56,872 nucleotides of DNA from a virus: IMG/VR virus record IMGVR_UViG_3300045988_079972, positions 1-56,872 of that record. The stretch is one strand, 5' to 3'. The position numbers were made by a program, and so were the translations under genes. The notes beneath the pieces were generated by a model. The model saw nothing but the letters and a program-made list of their open reading frames with translations. It did no database searches and was not told where the DNA came from. Shown here in pieces: positions 3,420 through 56,872 of this stretch. How positions within the stretch are numbered: position 1 is the stretch's first letter; every line of letters begins with the position of its first letter.

Positions 3420-4073
3420 ATGCACAAATGGGCTAAACAGATAATGGAATGCGTCAAGGCTAAGGTTGACGGAATTGGAATTGACAATTTTGAGGGGCAG
3501 AACCTTGACGATTTAAAGGATTTTACAGAAATAGCGAAGAATATAGCTTGCTTTGACAAGGATTACAGAATTGTTGAAGCTATGGAAAAGTCAGAAGATA
3601 ATGAGGATATTATGCGTATGCTTGAACAGTACGAAAATTATCCGGACAGAAGATACTATGACGCTTACCGCTATGCAAACGGCAGATTCGCCCCTAAAGG
3701 TCGTGGAACACGCAGAGGATATGAAGAACCGCCATATTATCATATGTACCCAGAAGCAGAGCATATGAGGGACATGGATAGGGATGATAGAGGAAAGATG
3801 TATTACAGCGAACCTGCAAGCAATGTGAGTGGTAGCAATAATATGTCAAGAAACTACTCTGAAAGCAACTATGACAGGGCAAAGCGTAACTATACAGAAA
3901 CAAAAGAGTTACACAAAGGGAACACTCAGGAAGATAAAGAGCATAAGATGAAATCCCTCGACGGATACATGAAAGAGTTGTCAACAGACATTACACACTT
4001 GCTCGGTGACATGACAGCAGAGGAAAAAAATCTTTTAAGAACAAAACTTAGTACACTTGTTTCTAAGATTTGA
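3420..4073 (+). CDS. Hypothetical Tyr/Arg/Asp/Asn-rich protein
   Basis: 217 aa; RRYYDAYRYANGRFAPKGRGTRRGYEEPPYYHMYPE...DRDDRGKMYY...SNVSGSNNMSRNYSESNY; no recognisable domain. Confidence 0.65.
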   Translation: MHKWAKQIMECVKAKVDGIGIDNFEGQNLDDLKDFTEIAKNIACFDKDYRIVEAMEKSEDNEDIMRMLEQYENYPDRRYYDAYRYANGRFAPKGRGTRRGYEEPPYYHMYPEAEHMRDMDRDDRGKMYYSEPASNVSGSNNMSRNYSESNYDRAKRNYTETKELHKGNTQEDKEHKMKSLDGYMKELSTDITHLLGDMTAEEKNLLRTKLSTLVSKI

Positions 4074-4097
4074 GAATAATATTTTCCGACAATCTAG

Positions 4098-4130
4098 GGC
4101 TATAGATAGCAATATCTGTAGCCTGTTTTT
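4098..4130 (+). terminator. Rho-independent terminator
   Basis: 11-bp stem GGCTATAGATA/TATCTGTAGCC (one G-U pair), GCAA loop, then tgttttt. Confidence 0.8.
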
Positions 4131-4163
4131 AAATAATAAAATCAATGTTTGTGAGGTGATTTT

Positions 4164-4484
4164 ATGTTTATAATAAATAATATAACGTGGCAAATTGTAT
4201 TTGTGCCAAGTGACAGTAATAAACTTATGCGTTCTGACGGTTCTATTAGCCTTGCTGTGACCGATTTTAACGACAAGGCAGTATATGTATCAGATAATGC
4301 AAAAAACGGCTATTTACGCAAAATAATGGCTCATGAATTATGTCATTGTTTTTGTTTCAGTTACAACATATATATGCCTATTCAGCAAGAGGAATATTTA
4401 GCAGACTGGATAAGCCTGTATGGGGCAGATTTGATATATTTACTTGACGATTTGATGATTACTTTAACAAGGAGTGTGGCATGA
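4164..4484 (+). CDS. Small HExxH zinc-metallopeptidase-like protein (ImmA/IrrE- or SprT-like, tentative)
   Basis: 106 aa, RBS gtgaggtgattttATG; motif MAHELCHCF. Confidence 0.5.
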   Translation: MFIINNITWQIVFVPSDSNKLMRSDGSISLAVTDFNDKAVYVSDNAKNGYLRKIMAHELCHCFCFSYNIYMPIQQEEYLADWISLYGADLIYLLDDLMITLTRSVA

Positions 4485-4651
4485 TGGACAATTTATTAAA
4501 GCAGATTCAAAAGACAAATCCTGATATGACAGTCGAAAAACTTATCTCTGAGATACAATATAATGACTATTTGACAGTGGCACTTATTATAAGCAAAGGA
4601 GTTGTAGAAAATGCAGAAAAATGTTACAATAGCAAACAAAAAAGGAGTTGA
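4481..4651 (+). CDS. Hypothetical small protein (56 aa)
   Basis: ATG overlaps the upstream TGA (ATGA coupling); below the ORF-track length cutoff; translated by hand. Confidence 0.4.
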   Translation: MMDNLLKQIQKTNPDMTVEKLISEIQYNDYLTVALIISKGVVENAEKCYNSKQKRS

Positions 4652-4657
4652 AAGATT

Positions 4658-4915
4658 ATGGCAGTAAAAAATGCTGATGGTGTACCTATTTCTTTTGAGT
4701 GCATGGATTTAATTAGAGAACTTGAAAGAGATATACAAGAGTTTGGTGAAGACAAGTTAATGGACGCAATAGTTGTGCATCAATGTGGGGTAGAGATTTG
4801 CAAAGATTATGACTTTTATCCGCTAGAGATGGAATTAAAAAAAGGTGAGCGAACAATAACAATGACTGCATCTGCATTGCTGGAAGTATTTAAAAAACAA
4901 AATTTAATGTTGTAA
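4658..4915 (+). CDS. Hypothetical protein
   Basis: 85 aa, RBS aaaaggagttgaaagattATG. Confidence 0.6.
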   Translation: MAVKNADGVPISFECMDLIRELERDIQEFGEDKLMDAIVVHQCGVEICKDYDFYPLEMELKKGERTITMTASALLEVFKKQNLML

Positions 4916-4933
4916 TTTCTAAAAAGGTGAATT

Positions 4934-5575
4934 ATGAAAAATATAGACGATATGATTGGGAAAAAATTCGGAAAATGGAGCGTTTTATCTCTTTCTGACA
5001 AAAAAGATGTAAGTAATAACAGATATTATAATTGTAGATGTGAATGTGGGAATACAGGTGTTGTAGCAGGTTGTAAGTTACGCAGTGGGAGGAGCAAGTC
5101 TTGCGGTTGTAATAGAACTCTTGATATGACAGGGGAGAAGATAGGAAATTTAACTTTTATAAAGCCAGTAGGGATGGAACAGGGACGGTATATTTGGGAA
5201 TGTCAATGTGATTGTGGGAATATCATCCGAAAAACAATATCAGATGCAAAAAACATTAAATCTTGCGGTTGCGTGCAGAAAAAATCAGCACAAAAAAGCA
5301 TAAAAGAAAATTCGAAAAGACTAACAAGAGTAGACAACACCTGTCTAAATAGTTTAACTCAAAAAACATCTAAAAATAACACTTCTGGAATCAAAGGCGT
5401 AAGTTGGAATTCTAAAAGAAAAAAATGGATTGCTCAGATAACATTTAAAGGGAAAAATTACGGTTTAGGGAGCTACTCAACTAAAGAAGAAGCGATACGA
5501 GCAAGAAAAGAAGCAGAAGAAAAATTGTTTAAACCAATTTTAGAAAAATATAATTATGAAAAGAAAGACGAGTAG
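4934..5575 (+). CDS. Zn-ribbon-repeat protein with C-terminal AP2 DNA-binding domain
   Basis: 213 aa; two CxCxCGN...CGC units; NTSGIKGVSWNSKRKKWIAQITFKGKNYGLGSYSTKEEAIRARKEAE matches the AP2/ERF-integrase fold signature. Confidence 0.65.
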   Translation: MKNIDDMIGKKFGKWSVLSLSDKKDVSNNRYYNCRCECGNTGVVAGCKLRSGRSKSCGCNRTLDMTGEKIGNLTFIKPVGMEQGRYIWECQCDCGNIIRKTISDAKNIKSCGCVQKKSAQKSIKENSKRLTRVDNTCLNSLTQKTSKNNTSGIKGVSWNSKRKKWIAQITFKGKNYGLGSYSTKEEAIRARKEAEEKLFKPILEKYNYEKKDE

Positions 5576-5754: not shown

Positions 5755-6420
5755 ATGAGCAGTCCCGAAAATGATTTTATAATTGTAAACACGAAAGAAG
5801 ATGTATTGCGTGAAAGATACATTGCAGGAGCAGAGTTAGTCGGGAAATATGATTTCCCAAAGCTGCAATCAATTCGGGCAAATTTAGAAGATGTTGAGCC
5901 GGTACCATTTAATCTTGCAAGTAAAGAAAAGCATCCGAAAAATTGTGTTTGCCATTTTTTTATAGATGATGTACGGTTTGAGCGACTTTGGAACAATCCA
6001 AGTAAATACATGGATATACTGAAAAACTTTAAGTATGTATGCAGTCCCGACTTTACTTTCTATGATGATATGCCCCTTGCTTTGCAAATATGGCAGATAT
6101 ACAGAAGTCGGGCATTAAGCTATTGTTTAAACCGAGCCGGTTTGAAGATTATCCCGGCTGTAGGCTGGGGAAGTGAAGAAACATACGACTATTGCTTTGA
6201 TGGTTTACCAATACACTCCACGCTTGCGGTATCGACAAACGGATGCTTTTCAGCAGAGGGGAAAGAATGTTATAGAAAAGGATTTAAAGAAATGTGCAGG
6301 CGATTGGAACCGAAGCAAGTTGTTGTTTTTGGTTCTCAAATTGATGTTGATATAGATGTAGATATTGTTTATAAATCGAGCTACTGGCAACAAATGAGCG
6401 AACGGCTAAAAAAGAGGTGA
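5755..6420 (+). CDS. DUF4417-family protein
   Basis: 221 aa; CHFFIDDVRFERLWNNP...VCSPDFTFYDDMPLALQIWQIYRSRALSYCLNRAGLKIIPAVGW matches my recollection of the DUF4417 signature. Confidence 0.6.
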   Translation: MSSPENDFIIVNTKEDVLRERYIAGAELVGKYDFPKLQSIRANLEDVEPVPFNLASKEKHPKNCVCHFFIDDVRFERLWNNPSKYMDILKNFKYVCSPDFTFYDDMPLALQIWQIYRSRALSYCLNRAGLKIIPAVGWGSEETYDYCFDGLPIHSTLAVSTNGCFSAEGKECYRKGFKEMCRRLEPKQVVVFGSQIDVDIDVDIVYKSSYWQQMSERLKKR

Positions 6421-6424
6421 TTTG

Positions 6425-6571
6425 ATGGGTAGCAGGAGTGGACACAAAAAAGGCGGATATATTTATACGCCTGGCTTAAAAAAGATTGTATATATAGAAA
6501 ATAGAGGCGGCATCAAGATTATAAAAACTCGTTATAAATTCTTAAAACAACGGCGGTCAAAGAACAAATAG
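6425..6571 (+). CDS. Hypothetical very basic miniprotein (48 aa)
   Basis: ATG 4 nt after the DUF4417 stop; MGSRSGHKKGGYIYTPGLKK...KQRRSKNK; hand-translated. Confidence 0.3.
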   Translation: MGSRSGHKKGGYIYTPGLKKIVYIENRGGIKIIKTRYKFLKQRRSKNK

Positions 6572-6670
6572 CAACTATACAGCGGTTATTATATATATGG
6601 ATAGAAAAAACAAGGCTAAGAAGAAAAATGGCTATATAAAGCCGTAGCAAAGAGATAAAGAGACACGAAA

Positions 6671-6698
6671 AAAGAGACTTTTTACAGTCTCTTTTTTT
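6671..6698. terminator. Terminator between converging transcription units
   Basis: AAAGAGACT/AGTCTCTTT stem flanked by an A-run and a T-run. Confidence 0.75.
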
Positions 6699-6788
6699 CC
6701 AAAATGTATCTATTAAATTTGTTAATAGTTAAATATAAATTATTATTTACATCCCAAAATTGTTTCTATTAAATATATAGTATTACTT

Positions 6789-7004
6789 TTACTTTTTAAG
6801 CAAGTTTTGAATGTCAATTAAGATTTTTGACATAATAACTTGCTTTTCGCTGTCGTGCATTTCATCGTCAAGAATTCCTGCACTTTCTGAACTTGCGTCA
6901 ATATTCAACGCTGTACAGATACGAATATACGCATCTGCAAATTTTACGCTATCATGCTGTTCTTTTGCATTCAACATTTTTAAATATAATTCCTTATATT
7001 TCAT
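6789..7004 (-). CDS. Hypothetical small protein (leftward operon, gene 7)
   Basis: 71 aa, RBS aaaaggaggtgagag. Confidence 0.6.
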   Translation of the reverse strand: MKYKELYLKMLNAKEQHDSVKFADAYIRICTALNIDASSESAGILDDEMHDSEKQVIMSKILIDIQNLLKK

Positions 7005-7037
7005 GCTCTCACCTCCTTTTTTATTATATGTTATTTG

Positions 7038-7247
7038 CTAAAATTCAGCAATTAAATTTTCACTGAATTTTTCGGCTTCTTCTTTGCCCTCGCGAATAGT
7101 GTTTACAGAACATACACGAACCCACGCATTATATGCTCTATTAAAATATAGTAAATCATATTTCATATTAAATCTGTTTATTTCCAAACCGCCTGTAAAA
7201 CGATTTACAATGTTGAATTTTTCGCCATTTTTTCTAAATATTCTCAT
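7038..7247 (-). CDS. Hypothetical small protein (leftward operon, gene 6)
   Basis: 69 aa, RBS ttaaggaggtaaattgtt. Confidence 0.6.
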   Translation of the reverse strand: MRIFRKNGEKFNIVNRFTGGLEINRFNMKYDLLYFNRAYNAWVRVCSVNTIREGKEEAEKFSENLIAEF

Positions 7248-7265
7248 AACAATTTACCTCCTTAA

Positions 7266-7433
7266 TCACCAAAAAATCACTTTGCCGTCTTTATTCTTAT
7301 AATGCCACCATTTGCCCGATTGATACATTATACAAGTGTTACCGTTTTCGTCAATCCATGCTTTTTTGATTTCACCATGTTCCCAAGTGCCAAACTGGGA
7401 ACGATGGAAGTTGTAAAAATGCTTTGCTGTCAT
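7266..7433 (-). CDS. Hypothetical small Trp-rich protein (leftward operon, gene 5)
   Basis: 55 aa, hand-translated (MTAKHFYNFHRSQFGTWEHGEIKKAWIDENGNTCIMYQSGKWWHYKNKDGKVIFW); RBS aaaaagggggc. Confidence 0.5.
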   Translation of the reverse strand: MTAKHFYNFHRSQFGTWEHGEIKKAWIDENGNTCIMYQSGKWWHYKNKDGKVIFW

Positions 7434-7448
7434 ATTCAAGCCCCCTTT

Positions 7449-7829
7449 TTATGAATAAATCAAGTTGTAAGCATCTAAATATTCTGAATGTTTTTTGACA
7501 AATTCAATTTGTGCTTTTTGTGCTTCGTCTGAATTTTTGCCTGAATGCAAAATTTCATAAAACAAATTGACAAGCTCCATTTTTTGAGAGTTTACAATTT
7601 TGCATTTTTCACGCTCTTTTTTATCAAAAAGCATGAAGACCCAGGAATAAGCATTCCGCTCGCAGTCTATTCTGTGATTTTTGCAAAACTTTTCAATAAC
7701 AGGAGTGAATGCGATATATTCACTCTGGTTGTCGAACTTTATGTAGCAGCCGACGCCACCAACTGTATTTTTGAAAGTTTCGTATTTTAAATTATATTTT
7801 TTGCAAAAAACAATAATTTTATTTACCAT
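7449..7829 (-). CDS. Hypothetical protein (leftward operon, gene 4)
   Basis: 126 aa, RBS attaggagggcaaaaag. Confidence 0.65.
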   Translation of the reverse strand: MVNKIIVFCKKYNLKYETFKNTVGGVGCYIKFDNQSEYIAFTPVIEKFCKNHRIDCERNAYSWVFMLFDKKEREKCKIVNSQKMELVNLFYEILHSGKNSDEAQKAQIEFVKKHSEYLDAYNLIYS

Positions 7830-7856
7830 CTTTTTGCCCTCCTAATTTTATTTTAA

Positions 7857-7900
7857 AGCAAGCCGGGGAATCGAACCCCGGAAAAGTGCCGACACTTGCC
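7857..7900 (-). ncRNA. tRNA-like acceptor/T-arm minihelix (no D arm or anticodon arm) inside the leftward operon
   Basis: Minus-strand read GGCAAGT-gtcggcacttttc-CGGGG-TTCGATT-CCCCG-GCTTGCT-T: canonical T-loop; 7-bp acceptor-like stem (5 Watson-Crick and 2 G-U pairs). Confidence 0.45.
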
Positions 7901-8193
7901 TAAATACAACTTTTGAGTGCTAATCTTTTGACCTCTTCGCATTTGACATTAACAAGATATTTTGCTCGGTCAAAATTAACCTTTCCACCTGTGCAATTAA
8001 CAATGTAATTTGCACATTCTATGTATTTGTTAAATTCTTTTTCGTATGCCTTATCAAAGGCTTTTTCTAACTCTGCATCTTCTGGGTTCTTTTCCCACCT
8101 CTTTTCTATTGTGTCGCAAGTTCTTGCAAGCTCACAATATTCGTCAATCAGTTCATGTAATTTTTTCATCATATCAACCGTCCTTTCTGCCAT
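7900..8193 (-). CDS. Hypothetical protein (leftward operon, gene 3)
   Basis: 97 aa; start could instead be Met8 (8172), which has the better RBS aaagga. Confidence 0.55.
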   Translation of the reverse strand: MAERTVDMMKKLHELIDEYCELARTCDTIEKRWEKNPEDAELEKAFDKAYEKEFNKYIECANYIVNCTGGKVNFDRAKYLVNVKCEEVKRLALKSCI

Positions 8194-8196
8194 TTA

Positions 8197-8418
8197 TTAA
8201 ATTCCATAAATTAAGATTTCAAAAATGCCATTTTCGATATTTTCAAATTCGACTTTAAAAAACAAACCGCAATTCAAGTAGTCACATTCCAATGCTCCGA
8301 GATGTGAATATCTCCACGGGATGTTGTTTTTTTCAAACGCATCTATAGCGTTTGAATTTAAACTACCTTTTCCCCACTCAACTAAAAGTCCTGTCCTTGC
8401 CTTTTCTTCGTTTTTCAT
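8197..8418 (-). CDS. Hypothetical small protein (leftward operon, gene 2)
   Basis: 73 aa, RBS agaggaggtgtagaaat. Confidence 0.6.
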   Translation of the reverse strand: MKNEEKARTGLLVEWGKGSLNSNAIDAFEKNNIPWRYSHLGALECDYLNCGLFFKVEFENIENGIFEILIYGI

Positions 8419-8433
8419 ATTTCTACACCTCCT

Positions 8434-8556
8434 CTATTCATCTTCCAAGTGTGCGTATTCTTCGCACTCTTTTTTCTTTGGACATTCTGAACATCTGTCC
8501 TCGTATTTTTCACATATTTCTGTAAGCTCTCTTTCAAGCTCTTCAATTCTTGTCAT
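8434..8556 (-). CDS. Hypothetical acidic Cys-containing miniprotein (leftward operon, gene 1)
   Basis: 40 aa, hand-translated (MTRIEELERELTEICEKYEDRCSECPKKKECEEYAHLEDE); RBS taggaggtacaagatt. Confidence 0.45.
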   Translation of the reverse strand: MTRIEELERELTEICEKYEDRCSECPKKKECEEYAHLEDE

Positions 8557-8605
8557 AATCTTGTACCTCCTAAAATGTTTTATTTGTATTTCTTATCTTG
8601 TATAT

Positions 8606-8634
8606 ATAATAGCACATATATTGCACATATACAA
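8606..8634 (-). promoter_or_regulatory. Candidate leftward promoter of the small-ORF operon
   Basis: Minus-strand read TTGTAT (8634-8629), 17 nt, TGcTATTAT (-10 at 8611-8606); the spacer is occupied by two GCACATAT boxes. Confidence 0.4.
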
Positions 8635-8707
8635 TATACAAAATGCACAAATATTGCACATATATTATAAGGCTTTATTGTATAATATGTATAATGCACA
8701 TATACCA

Positions 8708-8736
8708 TTGACTTTATAATGCACATATGTTAATAT
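8708..8736 (+). promoter_or_regulatory. Promoter P1 (drives the RHH gene), inside copy 1 of the 42-bp repeat
   Basis: TTGACT(8708-8713), 17 nt, TAATAT(8731-8736). Confidence 0.6.
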
Positions 8737-8766
8737 ATAAAGAAAAAAAGATTGGAGGATAATAAA

Positions 8767-8961
8767 ATGAGTGAAAATAAAACAAGTGCTGCACAGCTTA
8801 AAGCGTCAAGAGAATACGAGAAAAGAAATGACAGGATAAATGTTGTATTCCCAGCAGGGACACGAAGCCGCATGAAAGCGTTAGGTATTGAAAAACCTAA
8901 CACATTTATAAAAGAAGTTGTTGCCAGCGAACTTGAAAAAATGGAAAAATATTCAAAATAA
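8767..8961 (+). CDS. Ribbon-helix-helix (Arc/CopG/omega-like) regulator
   Basis: Start refined to ATG 8767 (RBS ggagga); RINVVFPAGTRSRMKALGIEKPNTFIKEVVASELEKM fits a strand-helix-helix. Confidence 0.6.
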   Translation: MSENKTSAAQLKASREYEKRNDRINVVFPAGTRSRMKALGIEKPNTFIKEVVASELEKMEKYSK

Positions 8962-8974
8962 TGCACATATACCA

Positions 8975-9003
8975 TTGACTTTATAATGCACATATGTTAT
9001 AAT
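8975..9003 (+). promoter_or_regulatory. Promoter P2 (drives the acidic-protein gene), inside copy 2 of the 42-bp repeat
   Basis: TTGACT(8975-8980), 17 nt, TATAAT(8998-9003). Confidence 0.6.
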
Positions 9004-9051
9004 GTATTCAACAAATAAGAAAGGCAGCCAAGTGGCTGAAAGGTGGATATT

Positions 9052-9540
9052 ATGAGTAGAAGAGCATACACAGGTTACAGAGAAAGAGGTAATCAGCATT
9101 TATACAATGACTTTACAGAAATTGAAGCGGACGAGCTTCCAAAGGTCGGTGAGGAATGGAGGGACGGGATTGTTTACGCTGTCAATGAGGAGCAGCTTGA
9201 TTGTGAACAGCCGAACGATGATAATTTTAAATTTAACTATTATTATATAGAGTGGATAGACGGTGACGGCGATGATTGCGGCGAGTATGTTTGTTTTTTA
9301 GATTATGAGTATAAATTAGACGACGACATGGAATATATTCAAAAAGATTTATTTGAAAAATTAAAAGGCGATTCAAAATTATCAAATTGTGAAGATGCCA
9401 GCGACTTTGCGGAGTTTATAAACGAAGAAAACTCCGGTGGTAACCTTGAATTTTTAGCAACAACCGCACGAATGTTTGGAAATGAGGTTGTAGACAGCGT
9501 TATAAGCGAATACGATTATTCGCCCGAAATTTACAAATAA
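9052..9540 (+). CDS. Highly acidic hypothetical protein (candidate DNA mimic / anti-restriction, speculative)
   Basis: About 163 aa from ATG 9052 (RBS aaaggtgga); many D/E runs (IEWIDGDGDDCGEYVCFLDYEYKLDDDMEY). Confidence 0.6.
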   Translation: MSRRAYTGYRERGNQHLYNDFTEIEADELPKVGEEWRDGIVYAVNEEQLDCEQPNDDNFKFNYYYIEWIDGDGDDCGEYVCFLDYEYKLDDDMEYIQKDLFEKLKGDSKLSNCEDASDFAEFINEENSGGNLEFLATTARMFGNEVVDSVISEYDYSPEIYK

Positions 9541-9560
9541 AAAAAGTAAATGCAGTCAAA

Positions 9561-9588
9561 AGCGGCTTGAAATATAGCCGCTTTTTTG
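9561..9588 (+). terminator. Rho-independent terminator
   Basis: AGCGGCT/AGCCGCT stem followed by tttttt. Confidence 0.8.
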
Positions 9589-9633
9589 ATGCAAAAACAT
9601 AATTCTATTATTTCACAATATTCTTTATAATCT

Positions 9634-9854
9634 TACAGAAAATCGAGTAAAAGATAGGGTATATATCATTACTCGAAAATCTGTATAAATCTAGTCTAGT
9701 TTCTGTATAATTTTATAAACACGAACTCGAATTTCTGTATATTTTTAAAAAAACATTTTTATATTGCAGTTTTAACAAGTAAATAGAGATGCATACTATT
9801 TTATTTTGTGCAGTTATTACAAATATTATGCTATAAATATACAGATTTTTGAGT
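9634..9854. repeat. Five copies of a 17-nt iteron ACTCGAWWWTCTGTATA in both orientations
   Basis: 9634-9648(-), 9671-9687(+), 9698-9710(+, partial), 9725-9741(+), 9838-9854(-), within a 650-bp AT-rich non-coding region. Confidence 0.75.
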
Positions 9855-10071
9855 TTTGCTGATACCCCATACAAGCATCTGTTTCTGTTACTGTTATATC
9901 AAAGACTTTAACTCTTAGATAAAACTATAGTATTAGCCAATAAAGTATATTAAGCATAAATATATATATAAATATAGCCGGTACAGTATATTATAAATAT
10001 ATATACTACACTATACACATATAAAGCTAGTATGTAGATTTTATATAAAACAAAAAAATATATTTAGGGTA

Positions 10072-10100
10072 TTGACAGCAGTTATATTTAGCTGTATAGT
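10072..10100 (+). promoter_or_regulatory. Candidate promoter upstream of terS
   Basis: TTGACA(10072-10077), 17 nt, TATAGT(10095-10100). Confidence 0.55.
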
Positions 10101-10225
10101 AGATGCATAAATTAAATATTTAGCAGATTTGCACTTGAGAGATATAAACATATATAGCGTATATGCCATGTATAATATCTTTTCAGGTGCTTTTTTATTT
10201 ATATAACAATACTGGAGGTGAGAAG

Positions 10226-10873
10226 ATGGTAAAGGATGTAGAGCAAAACATAGATGTATTTGAAAATGATGTAGATAAATATTTACAGCTTTTTCTTGAA
10301 GAGCAAGGCATAGAAGACATGAGAAGCGAGCCGCAAAATGTGTGGAGTTCTGCATTGATGTATATTCAAAAGCATGTATTTAAAAATAATAAAATGTTAA
10401 AAATGACTACACCACCAGAGGGTTATATAAATAACAATTACGACAACGAGCATAGCAATCTTAATAAGAGTAACTGTAACGCATATGACTTAGAGCAAGT
10501 AAAACGTATATGTGATATATATATATATGAGTGTATGCTATATGATAAGATACCTACTCAGCAGGGTTTTATATATATGACAGGCATAACTGTAGATACT
10601 ATATGCAGGTGGAAGAAAGATAGTAGTGTACTAAGTAAAGCGGGTTCAGAGTTTTTGCAAAATCTTTATGACAGTGAGGAGGAAGCGTTAATGTCTAAAG
10701 CATTCTCGCTCAGGAATCCGACCGGAGCATTGGCTGCACTCAATCACAAGAAGGGCTGGAGAGAAGATGGCAAGCTGCACATACAGCAAGTCGAACAAAA
10801 GACAGCAGCAGAGCTTCCAAGACTTGACGCAATACCCCAAGATGTAGCGGTTATTGAGGATAAAAAACACTAG
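10226..10873 (+). CDS. terS: Terminase small subunit
   Basis: Start at ATG 10226 (RBS ggaggtg); HTH-like GFIYMTGITVDTICRWKK and C-terminal NPTGALAALNHKKGWRED, typical of TerS families. Confidence 0.6.
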   Translation: MVKDVEQNIDVFENDVDKYLQLFLEEQGIEDMRSEPQNVWSSALMYIQKHVFKNNKMLKMTTPPEGYINNNYDNEHSNLNKSNCNAYDLEQVKRICDIYIYECMLYDKIPTQQGFIYMTGITVDTICRWKKDSSVLSKAGSEFLQNLYDSEEEALMSKAFSLRNPTGALAALNHKKGWREDGKLHIQQVEQKTAAELPRLDAIPQDVAVIEDKKH

Positions 10874-11913: not shown

Positions 11914-11985
11914 TGGGGTATCGCCAAGAGGTTAAGGCATAGCACTTTGACTGCTACATCATGGGTTCAAATCCCATTACCCCAG
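11914..11985 (+). tRNA. tRNA-Gln (anticodon TTG)
   Basis: Hand-folded cloverleaf: acceptor TGGGGTA/TACCCCA, anticodon arm TAGCA-CTTTGAC-TGCTA, T-arm ATGGG-TTCAAAT-CCCAT. Confidence 0.85.
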
Positions 11986-12240
11986 TTTGGCAAGATGCCA
12001 TCTTTGTTTTTCTTCTTGCAAAATCGCGGAGAAAAACTCCTTTCCCACACTAGCGGAATGCTGATTAAAGAGCCATCGCACGGCTCGGTGTGGTTGTTCG
12101 GGTGTCTATCCCACGATGCCCGAACTTACATACTTTTTCCGTACTGGACTAATGTAGTTCCATTACAACTTTCACACCCACCCATAACACACAGGTGCTT
12201 GCATACCATCTTAAAGCCTATACATAGGTGTATGCAGTTT

Positions 12241-12312
12241 TGGCATATAGTTCAGTGGTAGAACGCCTGACTGTTAATCAGGATGTCGCAGGTTCGATAC
12301 CTGCTATGCCAG
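12241..12312 (+). tRNA. tRNA-Asn (anticodon GTT)
   Basis: Acceptor TGGCATA/TATGCCA, D-arm GTTC-AGTGGTA-GAAC, anticodon arm CCTGA-CTGTTAA-TCAGG, T-arm GCAGG-TTCGATA-CCTGC. Confidence 0.9.
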
Positions 12313-12318
12313 TTAAAC

Positions 12319-12371
12319 AGAGTAAGCATGGTGTAGAATGGTGGTTCGAGTCCACCTGTGAGCATAACTCT
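12319..12371 (+). ncRNA. Truncated tRNA-like element (canonical T-arm, no D or anticodon arm)
   Basis: AGAGT-aagcatggtgtagaat-GGTGG-TTCGAGT-CCACC-tgtgagcata-ACTCT; shares AGAGTA...ATGGTGT with the minihelix at 13197. Confidence 0.35.
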
Positions 12372-12430
12372 AGCGAAAAAGGTACTCACCGCTTCTTTCC
12401 TAATGTTCTTAGCGATATAAAGAAAATTAG

Positions 12431-12520
12431 GGGCGAACGGCAACGATTGGTGGTGTTGCGGCAGACTGTAAATCTGTTCCCATGTGGTAAACAATAGAGG
12501 TTCGATTCCTCTTTCGCCCA
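12431..12520 (+). tRNA. tRNA-Tyr (anticodon GTA), long variable arm
   Basis: Acceptor GGGCGAA/TTCGCCC, anticodon arm GCAGA-CTGTAAA-TCTGT, 18-nt variable arm, T-arm AGAGG-TTCGATT-CCTCT. Confidence 0.85.
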
Positions 12521-12523
12521 TTT

Positions 12524-12606
12524 GCAGATATGGTGTAATGGTATCACAGTAGCTTGCTAAGCTATCCAGTAGAAATGCTGTCAAGGTTCGAATCCTTGTG
12601 CCTGCG
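12524..12606 (+). tRNA. tRNA-Ser (anticodon GCT), long variable arm
   Basis: Acceptor GCAGATA/TGCCTGC (one A-C mismatch), anticodon arm GTAGC-TTGCTAA-GCTAT, 16-nt variable arm, T-arm CAAGG-TTCGAAT-CCTTG. Confidence 0.75.
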
Positions 12607-12799
12607 TTATGTCAACACTTGTGCAGAAACCAATGTCGGCAATGGAAGAACAGAAACTAGCTGTTGACATTATACTTTTACTCTCGACAAACATCAATAA
12701 GGATGGTTCGGGAACGGTATAACAAAGTCCGTATGAATTATACAAATATAGCAACAAAAATAATTCAATCCGTAAGTAGATGCTATGAGCTTACGGTTT

Positions 12800-38954: not shown

Positions 38955-39329
38955 TTAATCAATAAACTTTTCAAAAAAATCACATAACACTTCTTTTTTA
39001 TCTGTTGATAACTTATCATACTTTATAATGAATTTCTTAAATCTTTCATCATGCAATCCTATTTTCATCACAATATCTGAGTATTCATCGTCGGTATCTT
39101 CAAATTGCTTTTCTTCTATCAAGTCGGTCATTCCTATATTGAAGTAATCCGCAATCTTTCTAAGTTTTCCAGTACCAGGAAGTGAATTACCTTTACACCA
39201 CATATTTAATGTTGTTGGCTTTTCATTCAAGTCTTTTGCAACATCTATCTGTTGCTTCTGATTTAAAGCTATATATTTGTTTAAGTTTTTGGCAAATATA
39301 CGCTTTGTTTCTTCCCTATCATCTGTCAT
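38955..39329 (-). CDS. CI-like XRE-family HTH repressor (no S24 peptidase domain)
   Basis: 124 aa; FAKNLNKYIALNQKQQIDVAKDLNEKPTTLNMWCKGNSLPGTGKLRKIADYFNIGMTDL; divergent from the Cro-like gene. Confidence 0.8.
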   Translation of the reverse strand: MTDDREETKRIFAKNLNKYIALNQKQQIDVAKDLNEKPTTLNMWCKGNSLPGTGKLRKIADYFNIGMTDLIEEKQFEDTDDEYSDIVMKIGLHDERFKKFIIKYDKLSTDKKEVLCDFFEKFID

Positions 39330-39470: not shown

Positions 39471-39674
39471 ATGCCGAAGATTTCTCTTGAAGCAGTAAGA
39501 GTAAATGCAAAAATGACACAGAAAAACTGGGCTAAATTGCTTGGTGTTTCGGTAGCAACAGTGATTAACTGGGAAAAAGGGAATACTGAGCCGAGCTTAT
39601 CTCATTTGAAAGAAATGAGCCGTTTATCTGGTATTCCAATGGATTTTATTTTTGTACCCGATAAATCCAATTAA
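39471..39674 (+). CDS. Cro-like XRE-family HTH protein
   Basis: 67 aa; MTQKNWAKLLGVSVATVINWEKGNTEPSLSHLKEMSRLSGIPMDFIF. Confidence 0.8.
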   Translation: MPKISLEAVRVNAKMTQKNWAKLLGVSVATVINWEKGNTEPSLSHLKEMSRLSGIPMDFIFVPDKSN

Positions 39675-55454: not shown

Positions 55455-55474
55455 TATAAAAGGAGGATTTGAAG

Positions 55475-56848
55475 ATGGAATGTGTTGCGTACATGAGAGT
55501 ATCGACAGAAAAACAAGCAGAAGATGGAAACGGGCTGGAAAGTCAAAAAAGAGATATTGATAATTACTGCAATAAGAACGGTTATATAATCAGTGATTAC
55601 TATATTGACGATGGCTATACAGGAGCAAACATGGATAGACCGGAATTACAACGGCTTATTAGTGATTGCGTTGCAAAAAGAATAAAATGTGTAGTTGCTT
55701 TTAAATTAGACAGGTTGTCACGAAGCATGGTTGATGGAATATATATCATCGAACGAGTGTTTCAAGCAAACAACATCTTGTTTAAATGTGTGCATGACAG
55801 TATAAGCTACGACAGTCCGATGGAGCAAGCATATACTCAGATGATGGCAGTTTTTGCACAGCTTGATAAAAATACAATGATGTTGCGTATGCGTGGCGGT
55901 ATGTTGGAAAGAGTAAAGCAAGGCTACTGGATGGGTGGTGGTAACACTCCTTATTGTTATAAGTATGATAAGGAAAAAGGAATTTTAGTACCTATACCTG
56001 AACGGAAAGAGCAGGCAAATCAAGCATTAGATTTGTTTATTGACGGCTATTCGGATGTTGCAATTAAAAAAATGCTTAATTTTACGCATGAGCATACTGT
56101 TAAAATGGTTTTAACAAGTCCAGTAAACATCGGCATGATACCATATAAGGGCAATTTATATAAAGGTTTGCATGAGCCTATTTTTGATAAAGATAGATTT
56201 CAGCTTGCACAGGAAGCGAGGAAAAACAGAAGAAAAAAGAAAACAGTTAGCCTTAACAAAGAACCAAATTTATTGACAGGTTTATGTTATTGCGGTGTGT
56301 GTGGATGTAAAATGCGTTATCAAAAATGGGGAAGTGAATCTGATGCACCTAAAAAAATTTACTGTTGCTCACGAAACAAAGATTTATTTTATTTGCCGAA
56401 TTACAATAAAGACTGCGATAATTCAATAGAATGGGCTACCGACATTGAAAAACAAGTCGAAGCTGAGATAATAAAAATATCTTTAAATTTGTCATCGCAA
56501 AAACCAATCGCAAAGCAGAGTAAAATTGATATAATACAGTCGCAAATCAAAAAGGAAAAATATCGCCGCAAAAGGCTTTTTAATCTTTACGCAGATGGAA
56601 ATGACGATGTTTTGAATATAATAAAACAGTCAGACGATACTATCAGTAGTTTAAAAGAACAACTTGAAATTGAATTATTAAGTAAAGAAGCAAATAAAAA
56701 GAAAAGTATTGCCTATGAGAACATCAAAAAAATTGCCGATGTTTGGGACAGCATCGACAAAAGAAATAAAAATATGATACTTAAAACTATAATTGACAAG
56801 ATAATAATTGTCAATGGAGATATTGAGATACAATTAAAGAATTTTTAG
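55475..56848 (+). CDS. int: Large serine recombinase (integrase)
   Basis: Start ATG 55475 (RBS aaaggagga); AYMRVSTEKQ catalytic Ser motif, DRLSRS, recombinase domain, Zn ribbon CYCGVCGCKM, C-terminal coiled coil. Confidence 0.9.
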   Translation: MECVAYMRVSTEKQAEDGNGLESQKRDIDNYCNKNGYIISDYYIDDGYTGANMDRPELQRLISDCVAKRIKCVVAFKLDRLSRSMVDGIYIIERVFQANNILFKCVHDSISYDSPMEQAYTQMMAVFAQLDKNTMMLRMRGGMLERVKQGYWMGGGNTPYCYKYDKEKGILVPIPERKEQANQALDLFIDGYSDVAIKKMLNFTHEHTVKMVLTSPVNIGMIPYKGNLYKGLHEPIFDKDRFQLAQEARKNRRKKKTVSLNKEPNLLTGLCYCGVCGCKMRYQKWGSESDAPKKIYCCSRNKDLFYLPNYNKDCDNSIEWATDIEKQVEAEIIKISLNLSSQKPIAKQSKIDIIQSQIKKEKYRRKRLFNLYADGNDDVLNIIKQSDDTISSLKEQLEIELLSKEANKKKSIAYENIKKIADVWDSIDKRNKNMILKTIIDKIIIVNGDIEIQLKNF

Positions 56849-56872
56849 CACATACTACACGCCATGCCGATG
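56818..56872. repeat. Terminal direct repeat copy B (identical to 1-55)
   Basis: Exact 55/55 match to the window start. Confidence 0.95.

Follow-up and report, generated by a model that had tools for sequence, protein, structure and literature searches.

The DNA analysed here, a viral contig of 56,872 nucleotides (IMG/VR record IMGVR_UViG_3300045988_079972, hereafter the window), carries between 6668 and 9587 what its sequence indicates is a self-contained, horizontally mobile accessory module. It comprises seven small genes read leftward (6789–8556), a rightward gene for a 64-amino-acid (aa) regulator (8767–8961, + strand, start ATG 8767) that appears ribbon-helix-helix (RHH)-like, with its fold unproven, and a rightward gene for a strongly acidic protein of 162 aa (9052–9540, + strand, start ATG 9052). 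An earlier note, made from the letters of the sequence alone, had described these seven leftward open reading frames (ORFs), the regulator and the acidic protein as an anti-defence locus; all of them lie where it had placed them, the lengths of the two rightward products being corrected from 65 and about 163 aa to 64 and 162 aa. The window ends in an exact 55-nt direct repeat (1–55 and 56818–56872) and, because of this terminal overlap, is a circular assembly of a complete genome of ~56.8 kb.

The window contains nine copies of the box GCACATAT where 2.6 would be expected, a count that none of 100 shuffles reached, and seven of the nine exact copies lie on the + strand within 384 bp (8612–8995). 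An eighth site, at 8645, is the variant GCACAAAT, so that the eight same-orientation boxes previously counted in this DNA are indeed eight sites, seven of them exact and one variant. The boxes are laid out as direct repeats with 11-bp or 25-bp spacing. Those nearest the leftward operon form the operator set O_L (8612–8663, + strand), two tandem pairs with 11-bp spacing (8612 and 8623; the 8645 variant and 8656). A leftward promoter, P_L, can be read here (8606–8634, − strand), with a predicted −35 of TTGTAT (8634–8629), a 17-nt spacer made up of two boxes and a −10 of TATTAT (8611–8606); the second tandem pair lies just upstream of it. The −35 is weak (three of six positions), hence P_L was not called by the automatic promoter scan, which proposed an alternative leftward promoter at 8693–8664 (TATACA-18-TATAAT). 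The position of P_L is kept in relatives, one of which, L042, has the same layout, and its −10 side, TTGTATATATAATA, is conserved across all regulator alleles.

On the rightward side, a 43-nt promoter-operator unit at 8691–8733 is repeated exactly at 8958–9000. Each copy has a box just upstream of the −35 (TTGACT), and another box lies in the 17-nt spacer that separates this element from the −10. The two copies would constitute two near-consensus extended −10 promoters: P_R1 (8691–8736, + strand; TTGACT-17-TAATAT, extended TG, boxes at 8696 and 8721), which is predicted to drive the regulator gene, and P_R2 (8958–9003, + strand; TTGACT-17-TATAAT, extended TG, boxes at 8963 and 8988), which is predicted to drive the acidic gene. 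Because the P_R1 unit is duplicated as P_R2, the acidic gene is predicted to have a repressible promoter of its own; the earlier claim that it carries its own copy of the same promoter is thus supported by an exact duplication, and the claim that boxes lie in the spacer of the leftward promoter and in both rightward promoters also agrees with our reading of the sequence.

The evidence that the regulator recognizes these boxes comes from a comparison of alleles. The window type is accompanied by 6–7 copies of GCACATAT, a 73% identical allele by GCACTTAT, a one-base change from the window operator, and two paralogues, 44% and 41% identical, by four copies of TCACGCACTTAT and 5–6 copies of TAAGGCACAA, respectively. 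Across the four alleles the operator series reads GCACATAT, GCACTTAT, CACGCACTTAT and TAAGGCACAA, at the same promoter positions, and a GCAC core is common to all operator types. In loci that carry the acidic gene, the regulator slot is occupied by the window type, by the 44% or the 41% paralogue, or by an unrelated helix-turn-helix (HTH) protein of the HTH_26 family, which comes without any of these repeats. When loci with different regulators are compared, their homology ends and begins again precisely at the −10 hexamers, resuming at 8998; therefore, the regulator, the −35 elements and the operators move as one cassette. Three more phage or mobile-element families, with regulators 88%, 83% and 73% identical to that of the window, have six boxes on three promoters and the duplicated promoter after the regulator stop codon. 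Because each allele is paired with its own box in the same promoter layout, there is strong evidence, at the sequence level, that the regulator would act as a sequence-specific repressor of all three promoters, its own included. The compact autoregulator with orphan cargo that had been proposed for this locus is upheld by this covariation of allele and operator.

The genes under these promoters are far more variable than their surroundings. The flanks are conserved, while the region 6696–8998 is shuffled gene by gene between loci; its left breakpoint coincides with a terminator at 6668–6697, the homology to relatives stopping at 6696. Among 13 loci with the acidic gene, the leftward cassette contains 19 cargo families, with alternative genes at fixed slots, and a rough census of 118 regulator loci yielded 979 cargo ORFs, which fall into 287 families; their median length is 86 aa. 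The module is hosted by temperate Clostridia phages and by conjugative elements. In the contig collection, 204 blocks list an identical acidic protein, and two of the contigs with it are conjugative elements that encode a relaxase and a type IV coupling protein (VirD4/TraG). The segment common to both of these extends from a gene for an AP2-domain protein with repeated CxCxCG motifs (4934–5575) to ~340 bp past the acidic gene; therefore, the module moves between phages and conjugative elements. Comparison of the loci shows one predicted repressor with cognate operators on three putative promoters, and mobile, shuffled cargo on both sides of it.

The only family match of the regulator was to phrog_31631 (E=8.5e-24), function unknown. 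Its AlphaFold2 (AF2) monomer model, of low confidence with a mean predicted local distance difference test score (pLDDT) of 63.9, has a helix at residues 8–21, an extended segment at 22–31 (DRINVVFPAG) and helices at 32–39 and 44–63, an order of elements compatible with an RHH fold with an N-terminal extension. In an hhalign comparison with a sequence taken to be ParG, the strand and both helices fell in register with an E-value of 0.012 but a probability of only 3.5%; alignments to sequences taken to be Arc and omega gave nothing beyond the weak ParG alignment. The 11-bp direct-repeat operators would suit an RHH protein better than an HTH protein, and the regulator may well be an RHH protein.

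The acidic protein has 42 aspartate and glutamate residues (26%) against 14 lysine and arginine residues, a net charge of −28 and a pI of 4.05. Its ratio of nonsynonymous to synonymous substitution rates (dN/dS) is 0–0.04, and across phage and conjugative copies dN is 0 at a dS of 0.11. By this measure, it is under strong purifying selection, and it is the conserved anchor of the module. The AF2 model (pLDDT 94.7) consists of a five-stranded N-terminal beta domain, which includes the motif LDCEQ, and a five-helix C-terminal domain; this confidently predicted fold is without a known relative. A word-based homologue search recovered only relatives of at least 95% identity, and when 1.84 billion representatives were searched exhaustively with HMMER, 34 relatives emerged. 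The majority of the latter are stand-alone proteins of ~90 aa with acidic tails, their similarity being to the first 85 residues (motif LDCEQ); none of the 34 belongs to a Pfam or PHROG family. There was no match to the protein in the PDB by sequence or profile searches, nor by tblastn in PLSDB plasmids and INPHARED phages, and the DNA of 6500–9800 had no match among phages. The charge, the size, the early-type promoter and the presence on two kinds of invading DNA would be in keeping with an inhibitor acting either as a nucleic-acid mimic or by binding to a host protein; it is the bulk charge alone that suggests a DNA mimic.

The seven leftward ORFs are, as judged from substitution patterns, real genes, because dN/dS is about 0.04–0.2 against homologues in related loci wherever these have diverged. 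The strong ribosome-binding sites (RBSs) and tight packing ascribed to them hold for six of the seven, which have GGAGG-type sites, and for all gaps (3–33 nt) except one of 70 nt. The first gene of the operon, orf40 (family F7; 8434–8556, − strand), encodes an acidic peptide of 40 aa with cysteines arranged as C-X6-C-X2-C-X5-C, a spacing that we take to be that of the 4Fe-4S cluster loop of EndoIII/MutY; its matches, to MutY and Fe-hydrogenase cluster regions, were weak. It is followed by orf73 (family F1; 73 aa, 8197–8418, − strand; dN/dS 0.1–0.2), a near-core gene found in 10 of the 13 acidic-gene loci, one conjugative element among them. Next comes orf97 (family F10; 7900–8193, − strand), which encodes a helical protein with six cysteines, of 97 aa or of 90 aa if translated from an internal ATG with a better RBS. 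It begins 3 nt after orf73, to which it may be translationally coupled, and its slot alternates with an unrelated 84-aa gene. A match of orf97 to ArdA (PF07275) was rejected, as it reached 18.6 bits against a gathering threshold of 27 (E=0.003) and covered only profile positions 61–123; in the PDB there was no ArdA match to orf97, only spurious matches to cullins. The product of orf126 (family F6; 126 aa, 7449–7829, − strand; dN/dS about 0.1) is a strict orphan, with only relatives of at least 88% identity among 5.8 billion proteins.

The most widespread cargo family is that of orf57 (family F0; 7266–7439, − strand; dN/dS 0.14), whose product has 57 aa, or 55 if counted from ATG. It had tblastn matches in all 13 acidic-gene loci and is 62–68% identical in a second phage family. 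A PADLOC match of orf57 to Cas11d (E=0.0047, 15.4 bits) was judged spurious because of its weak score and because the sequence, rich in W, Y, K and G, is by eye unlike the helical Cas11. The last two genes of the operon, orf69 (family F4; 69 aa, basic, 7038–7247, − strand) and orf71 (family F3; 71 aa, 6789–7004, − strand; dN/dS 0.07–0.10; no family match), form a tight acidic/basic pair; they always travel together as a two-gene module, which in relatives alternates with a 176-aa gene.

Several RNA-level elements accompany these genes. The leftward operon ends at a hairpin terminator with a 12-bp stem, found by a terminator scan at 6668–6697; its position also suits the end of the upstream rightward DUF4417 operon, which suggests bidirectional use. 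The rightward unit ends at an intrinsic terminator read from the sequence (9562–9587, + strand; a GCGGCT/AGCCGC stem followed by TTTTTT). In the 5′ untranslated region (UTR) after P_R2, a 5-bp hairpin (9025–9038, + strand) lies 4–6 nt upstream of the Shine-Dalgarno sequence. The stems in the window and in the loci L003, L004, L013, L023 and L042 are CAGCC/GGCUG, CAGUC/GACUG, GCGGC/GCCGC, GCACC/GGUGC and GCCCC/GGGGC; because differing stems occupy the same position, the hairpin appears to be conserved by compensatory change regardless of regulator or cargo. In the 70-nt gap between orf97 and orf126, upstream of the latter, there is a tRNA-like mini-helix (7857–7900, − strand) in which an acceptor-like stem is combined with a small arm and a perfect T-arm (CCGGGGTTCGATTCCCCGG), the anticodon arm being absent. 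It is kept with the orf126 module in four relatives and might signal processing by RNase P/Z, act as an internal attenuator or represent a captured 3′ half of a tRNA. It was not called by ARAGORN, and its match to the Rfam family mascRNA-menRNA (23.6 bits, E=0.14) is under the gathering score, as nothing in the Rfam search of 6400–10300 exceeded gathering scores. Beyond the acidic gene, the non-coding stretch 9586–9881 contains about five copies, in both orientations, of a 17-mer like ACTCGAAAATCTGTATA. This stretch is kept with the acidic gene in the two conjugative elements and is therefore not simply a phage pac region; its role could be that of an origin, of an array for protein binding or of a region controlling a promoter.

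Related loci encode a few cargo proteins that can be recognized. A 347-aa AcrVA2-like gene occupies the far end of the leftward array in the loci L042–L047, L076 and L082 (for example, 546–1589, − strand, of L042). This array starts at the 83% identical regulator with the same GCACATAT boxes, and these sister phages have terS-like and MazG genes downstream, as in the window. The assignment rests on a precomputed Pfam annotation (PF26125), missed in our local Pfam run, and on the match to PDB entry 7ci1 recovered instead (E=1.4e-8), which spans the conserved C-terminal motif KxPHxRRGHWHxxW. In L013, a phage syntenic with the window, the leftward cassette includes a full-length orphan Cas5b of 233 aa (3497–4198, − strand; PADLOC E=2.8e-21); no other cas gene is recognizable in the 12.5 kb of this contig that were examined, CRISPR arrays not having been searched for. 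Likened by description to AcrIB3, this Cas5b is a candidate anti-CRISPR. A remote, full-length homologue of the acidic protein, 34% identical, is encoded 5 kb from another AcrVA2-like gene with an adjacent gene for an HTH_26 regulator, in the same local layout, with small genes read leftward, an HTH regulator divergent from them and, after one further gene, that of the acidic protein. In the early region of two members of an 80-kb family with the 73% identical regulator (L025 and L028), a Tad2-like gene (PF11195) lies ~4.4 kb to the right of the regulator, and one leftward cassette of this family encodes a 311-aa DUF4121 protein. The leftward cassette of L011 contains a 225-aa ORF (4341–5018) with repeated cysteine motifs that by eye resemble those of the AP2-domain protein of the window.

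On the reading we favour, the module belongs to a known class of repressor-gated establishment or anti-defence regulons. One member is controlled by Reg_p576 of the pLS20-family conjugative plasmids (EGeRS2), an RHH repressor that acts at four strong promoters, on dual direct heptamers located at their −35, and controls variable establishment genes, ardC included; repeats in the 5′ UTRs of p576 are thought to stabilize mRNA (PMC8708921). Both systems have a small autorepressor, in the window a predicted one, with short direct repeats at the −35 of several strong promoters, control of its own gene and of separate operons of variable, mostly unknown small genes, a proposed burst and shut-off at entry, and short inverted repeats in 5′ UTRs. 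They differ in the operator, TTATCCCnnTTATCCC there and (T)GCACATAT here. Furthermore, ardC is always present in p576, whereas the window module has no known anti-restriction gene; the window module resides in a phage and is common to conjugative elements; and here the promoter-operator unit is exactly duplicated so as to flank the regulator gene, and regulator-operator alleles swap as cassettes.

Another member of the class is Aca14, an RHH-type regulator that represses both the operon in which it is encoded and a neighbouring one of putative anti-defence genes (PMC13551039). Aca14 is an RHH protein in place of the usual HTH Aca, as the window regulator may be, HTH and RHH(-like) proteins being interchangeable at one position, and in both cases the 5′ UTRs contain structured motifs. 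The operator of Aca14 is an inverted repeat over the −10, whereas here direct repeats lie at the −35 and in the spacer. One feature typical of acr-aca operons, a small DNA-binding autoregulator with an operator that overlaps the promoter, is present at the sequence level: boxes are found in or next to the −35 and spacer of P_L, P_R1 and P_R2 and vary together with the regulator allele. Another, a regulator downstream in the acr operon, as in Aca14, is absent: the window regulator gene precedes the acidic gene and points away from the seven-gene operon. The literature does describe bidirectional arrangements for Aca11/Aca13 and multi-operon ones for Aca14 (for Aca14, PMC13551039). Among the window proteins, no homologue of a validated Acr or anti-defence protein was found in Pfam, PHROGs, PADLOC or NCBIfam, such genes occurring only in the sister loci (AcrVA2-like, Cas5b). 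AcrIB3 is a Cas5 homologue and a validated anti-CRISPR, and orphan viral cas genes anchor anti-defence loci (bioRxiv 10.1101/2023.06.24.545427). Those loci resemble the present one in that small uncharacterized genes lie clustered in them, within prophages and mobile elements, and the sister cassette of L013 has its orphan Cas5b, while the window itself lacks a cas homologue. The module is set apart by a regulator family not classified before, by regulator and operator alleles that swap, by the exact duplication of a promoter, by its presence in both phages and conjugative elements, and by cargo without a known family.

We interpret the module as a repressor-gated establishment or counter-defence regulon similar to those of Reg_p576 and Aca14, with cargo not identified by family, and give this reading a probability of roughly 0.55. 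The eight direct-repeat operators of the 64-aa repressor would overlap the −35 or the spacer of three sigma-70-type promoters, P_L serving the seven-gene operon, P_R1 the repressor gene and P_R2 the acidic gene. Upon entry into a naive cell by infection or conjugation, with no repressor present, all three promoters would fire; the repressor would then accumulate, fill its boxes and switch the module off, so that expression would peak briefly at the start and stay low in the lysogen. The same logic has been demonstrated for Reg_p576 and applies to Aca proteins, Aca14 among them. The recipient cell would be the most likely target of the eight small proteins, in the role of counter-defence or establishment factors, as their genetic associations suggest, and the acidic protein would inhibit a host nucleic-acid-binding or immune protein. 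The counter-defence part of this reading is plausible by association and unproven for every window gene. The anti-defence locus proposed in the earlier note gains from the AcrVA2-like and orphan Cas5b genes of sister loci and from the conjugative elements, but no window protein matches an anti-defence family in Pfam, PHROGs, PADLOC or NCBIfam.

A number of results weigh against the regulon reading. The RHH identity claimed for the regulator received no confirmation: Pfam, NCBIfam and PDB (phmmer and profile) searches found no match to the regulator, nor Pfam to two distant alleles, and Foldseek found none to the AF2 model (pLDDT 64). None of the eight cargo proteins belongs to a known family in Pfam, PHROGs, PADLOC or NCBIfam, no Acr-specific database having been searched; for the leftward proteins this agrees with their earlier description as devoid of recognizable domains. 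The acidic protein had been likened to Ocr and ArdA, which it resembles in its small size, extreme negative charge, occurrence in phages and conjugative elements and early-type promoter, but it has no Pfam ArdA match and no sequence or predicted-fold similarity to either: the best Foldseek E-values were 0.16 in the PDB (TM at most 0.21) and 0.076 in BFVD, with nothing at E<0.07. Because its confident AF2 fold is without a PDB or BFVD match, it does not belong to the ArdA or Ocr families. AcrVA2-like genes are found in only two of 80 IMG/VR regulator loci. Finally, the cargo elsewhere is varied. In the rightward slot of L033–L041, the 88% identical regulator with the same boxes is combined with interchangeable HicA/HicB, DUF4160/DUF2442 and DUF4258 genes, toxin–antitoxin-type cargo situated at the prophage end adjoining bacterial genes, and other regulator loci include genes for a membrane protein and for Rha/ORF6N-like (antirepressor-like) proteins; therefore, the platform and its slot are not exclusively used for counter-defence.

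This variety is what one would expect if the module were a general 'moron' or conflict hotspot, a neutral socket for any cargo, and the cargo of the window served the lysogen in superinfection exclusion, defence, addiction or host modulation. Such a role, the main alternative, which we consider possible though doubtful, would also suit the 80-kb family, where the module adjoins the integrase at the prophage end, the classic moron position, and the co-travelling acidic/basic pair of orf71 and orf69. However, no toxin–antitoxin match was found for any window ORF in Pfam, NCBIfam or PADLOC, nor any credible defence match, the weak Cas11d match of orf57 being the only one in PADLOC; proteins of 40–126 aa are below the size of most defence effectors; and the sole recognizable cargo of the examined homologous leftward cassettes is of the anti-CRISPR type (AcrVA2-like, orphan Cas5b). 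The identical acidic protein on conjugative elements and phages likewise favours a function at the entry into a new host.

The regulator also invites comparison with the immI region of phage P22, in which small RHH-type repressors (Mnt and Arc) at divergent promoters gate a downstream effector, Ant. If the window module were such a secondary immunity switch, the small RHH-like repressor would gate the acidic protein as an antirepressor of the CI-like repressor and thereby control induction. The divergent promoters and the repressed downstream gene do resemble mnt/arc-ant, and antirepressors are often small and acidic, as this protein is. We regard this switch as quite unlikely, given that the genome already encodes a CI-like HTH repressor of 124 aa (38955–39329) and a Bro/ANT antirepressor (at 39652), both near 39 kb, so that the main immunity region appears to lie there and the module does not appear to be the main immunity switch. 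Besides, unlike the effector of P22, the acidic gene is mobile cargo, and the conjugative elements that encode an identical protein have backbones of unrelated origin; sister phages have other, unrelated cargo in its place under the same regulator, and the variable seven-gene operon has no counterpart in immI. Less probable still is a partition or maintenance cassette, in which a ParG- or omega-like RHH centromere-binding protein and the direct repeats would segregate an episomal prophage. Arrays of direct repeats to which small RHH proteins bind are a typical feature of ParG and omega, the in-register alignment of the regulator that came out best, though weak, was that to the sequence taken to be ParG, and the contig is circular in the assembly. 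On the other hand, there is no adjacent ParA or ParM-type ATPase, all boxes lie on promoter elements with no separate centromere, the phage has a serine integrase (55469–56848), and the flanking cargo is hypervariable.

The structural genes of the genome include those for an SPP1-type portal, a large terminase and a capsid protein and, together with the integrase, indicate a temperate, siphovirus-like phage. The GC content is 36%, and the phage probably infects a gut bacterium of the Clostridia or Lachnospiraceae, because relatives of the regulator come from sources named Clostridium sp., Anaerobutyricum soehngenii and Eubacterium sp. Nearly all of the genome is transcribed rightward, and only three leftward units have strong RBSs, the seven-gene cassette among them. 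Four phage tRNA genes (Gln, Asn, Tyr and Ser; 11914–12607) are clustered 3′ of the MazG gene.

A broader version of the regulon reading, which we put forward only tentatively, is that the repressor with its duplicated promoter-operator unit is a portable early-expression socket of temperate gut Clostridia phages and conjugative elements, whose regulator and operator alleles swap together and so avoid cross-repression when several such elements share a cell. Its hundreds of cargo families would then be largely undiscovered counter-defence genes, and the acidic protein would found a new structural class of broad-spectrum immune inhibitors. To our knowledge, few anti-defence proteins are known from gut Clostridia phages and elements, and type I-B CRISPR systems are common in these bacteria. 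If the cargo is indeed counter-defence, the regulator and its readily recognized operator architecture would make it possible to mine the phages and conjugative elements of human-gut Clostridia by sequence for candidate inhibitors, the pool being the 287 families of 118 loci; a regulator-guided strategy has recently expanded the set of Aca-linked genes (PMC13551039). The acidic protein, identical across phage and conjugative backbones and with a predicted fold that has no known relative, would be the single best candidate for biochemistry. The sets of regulator and operator alleles built around the GCAC core offer a natural specificity series for the evolution of small-repressor operators. Should the cargo turn out not to be counter-defence, the module would still be a clean example of a mobile, repressor-gated accessory hotspot.

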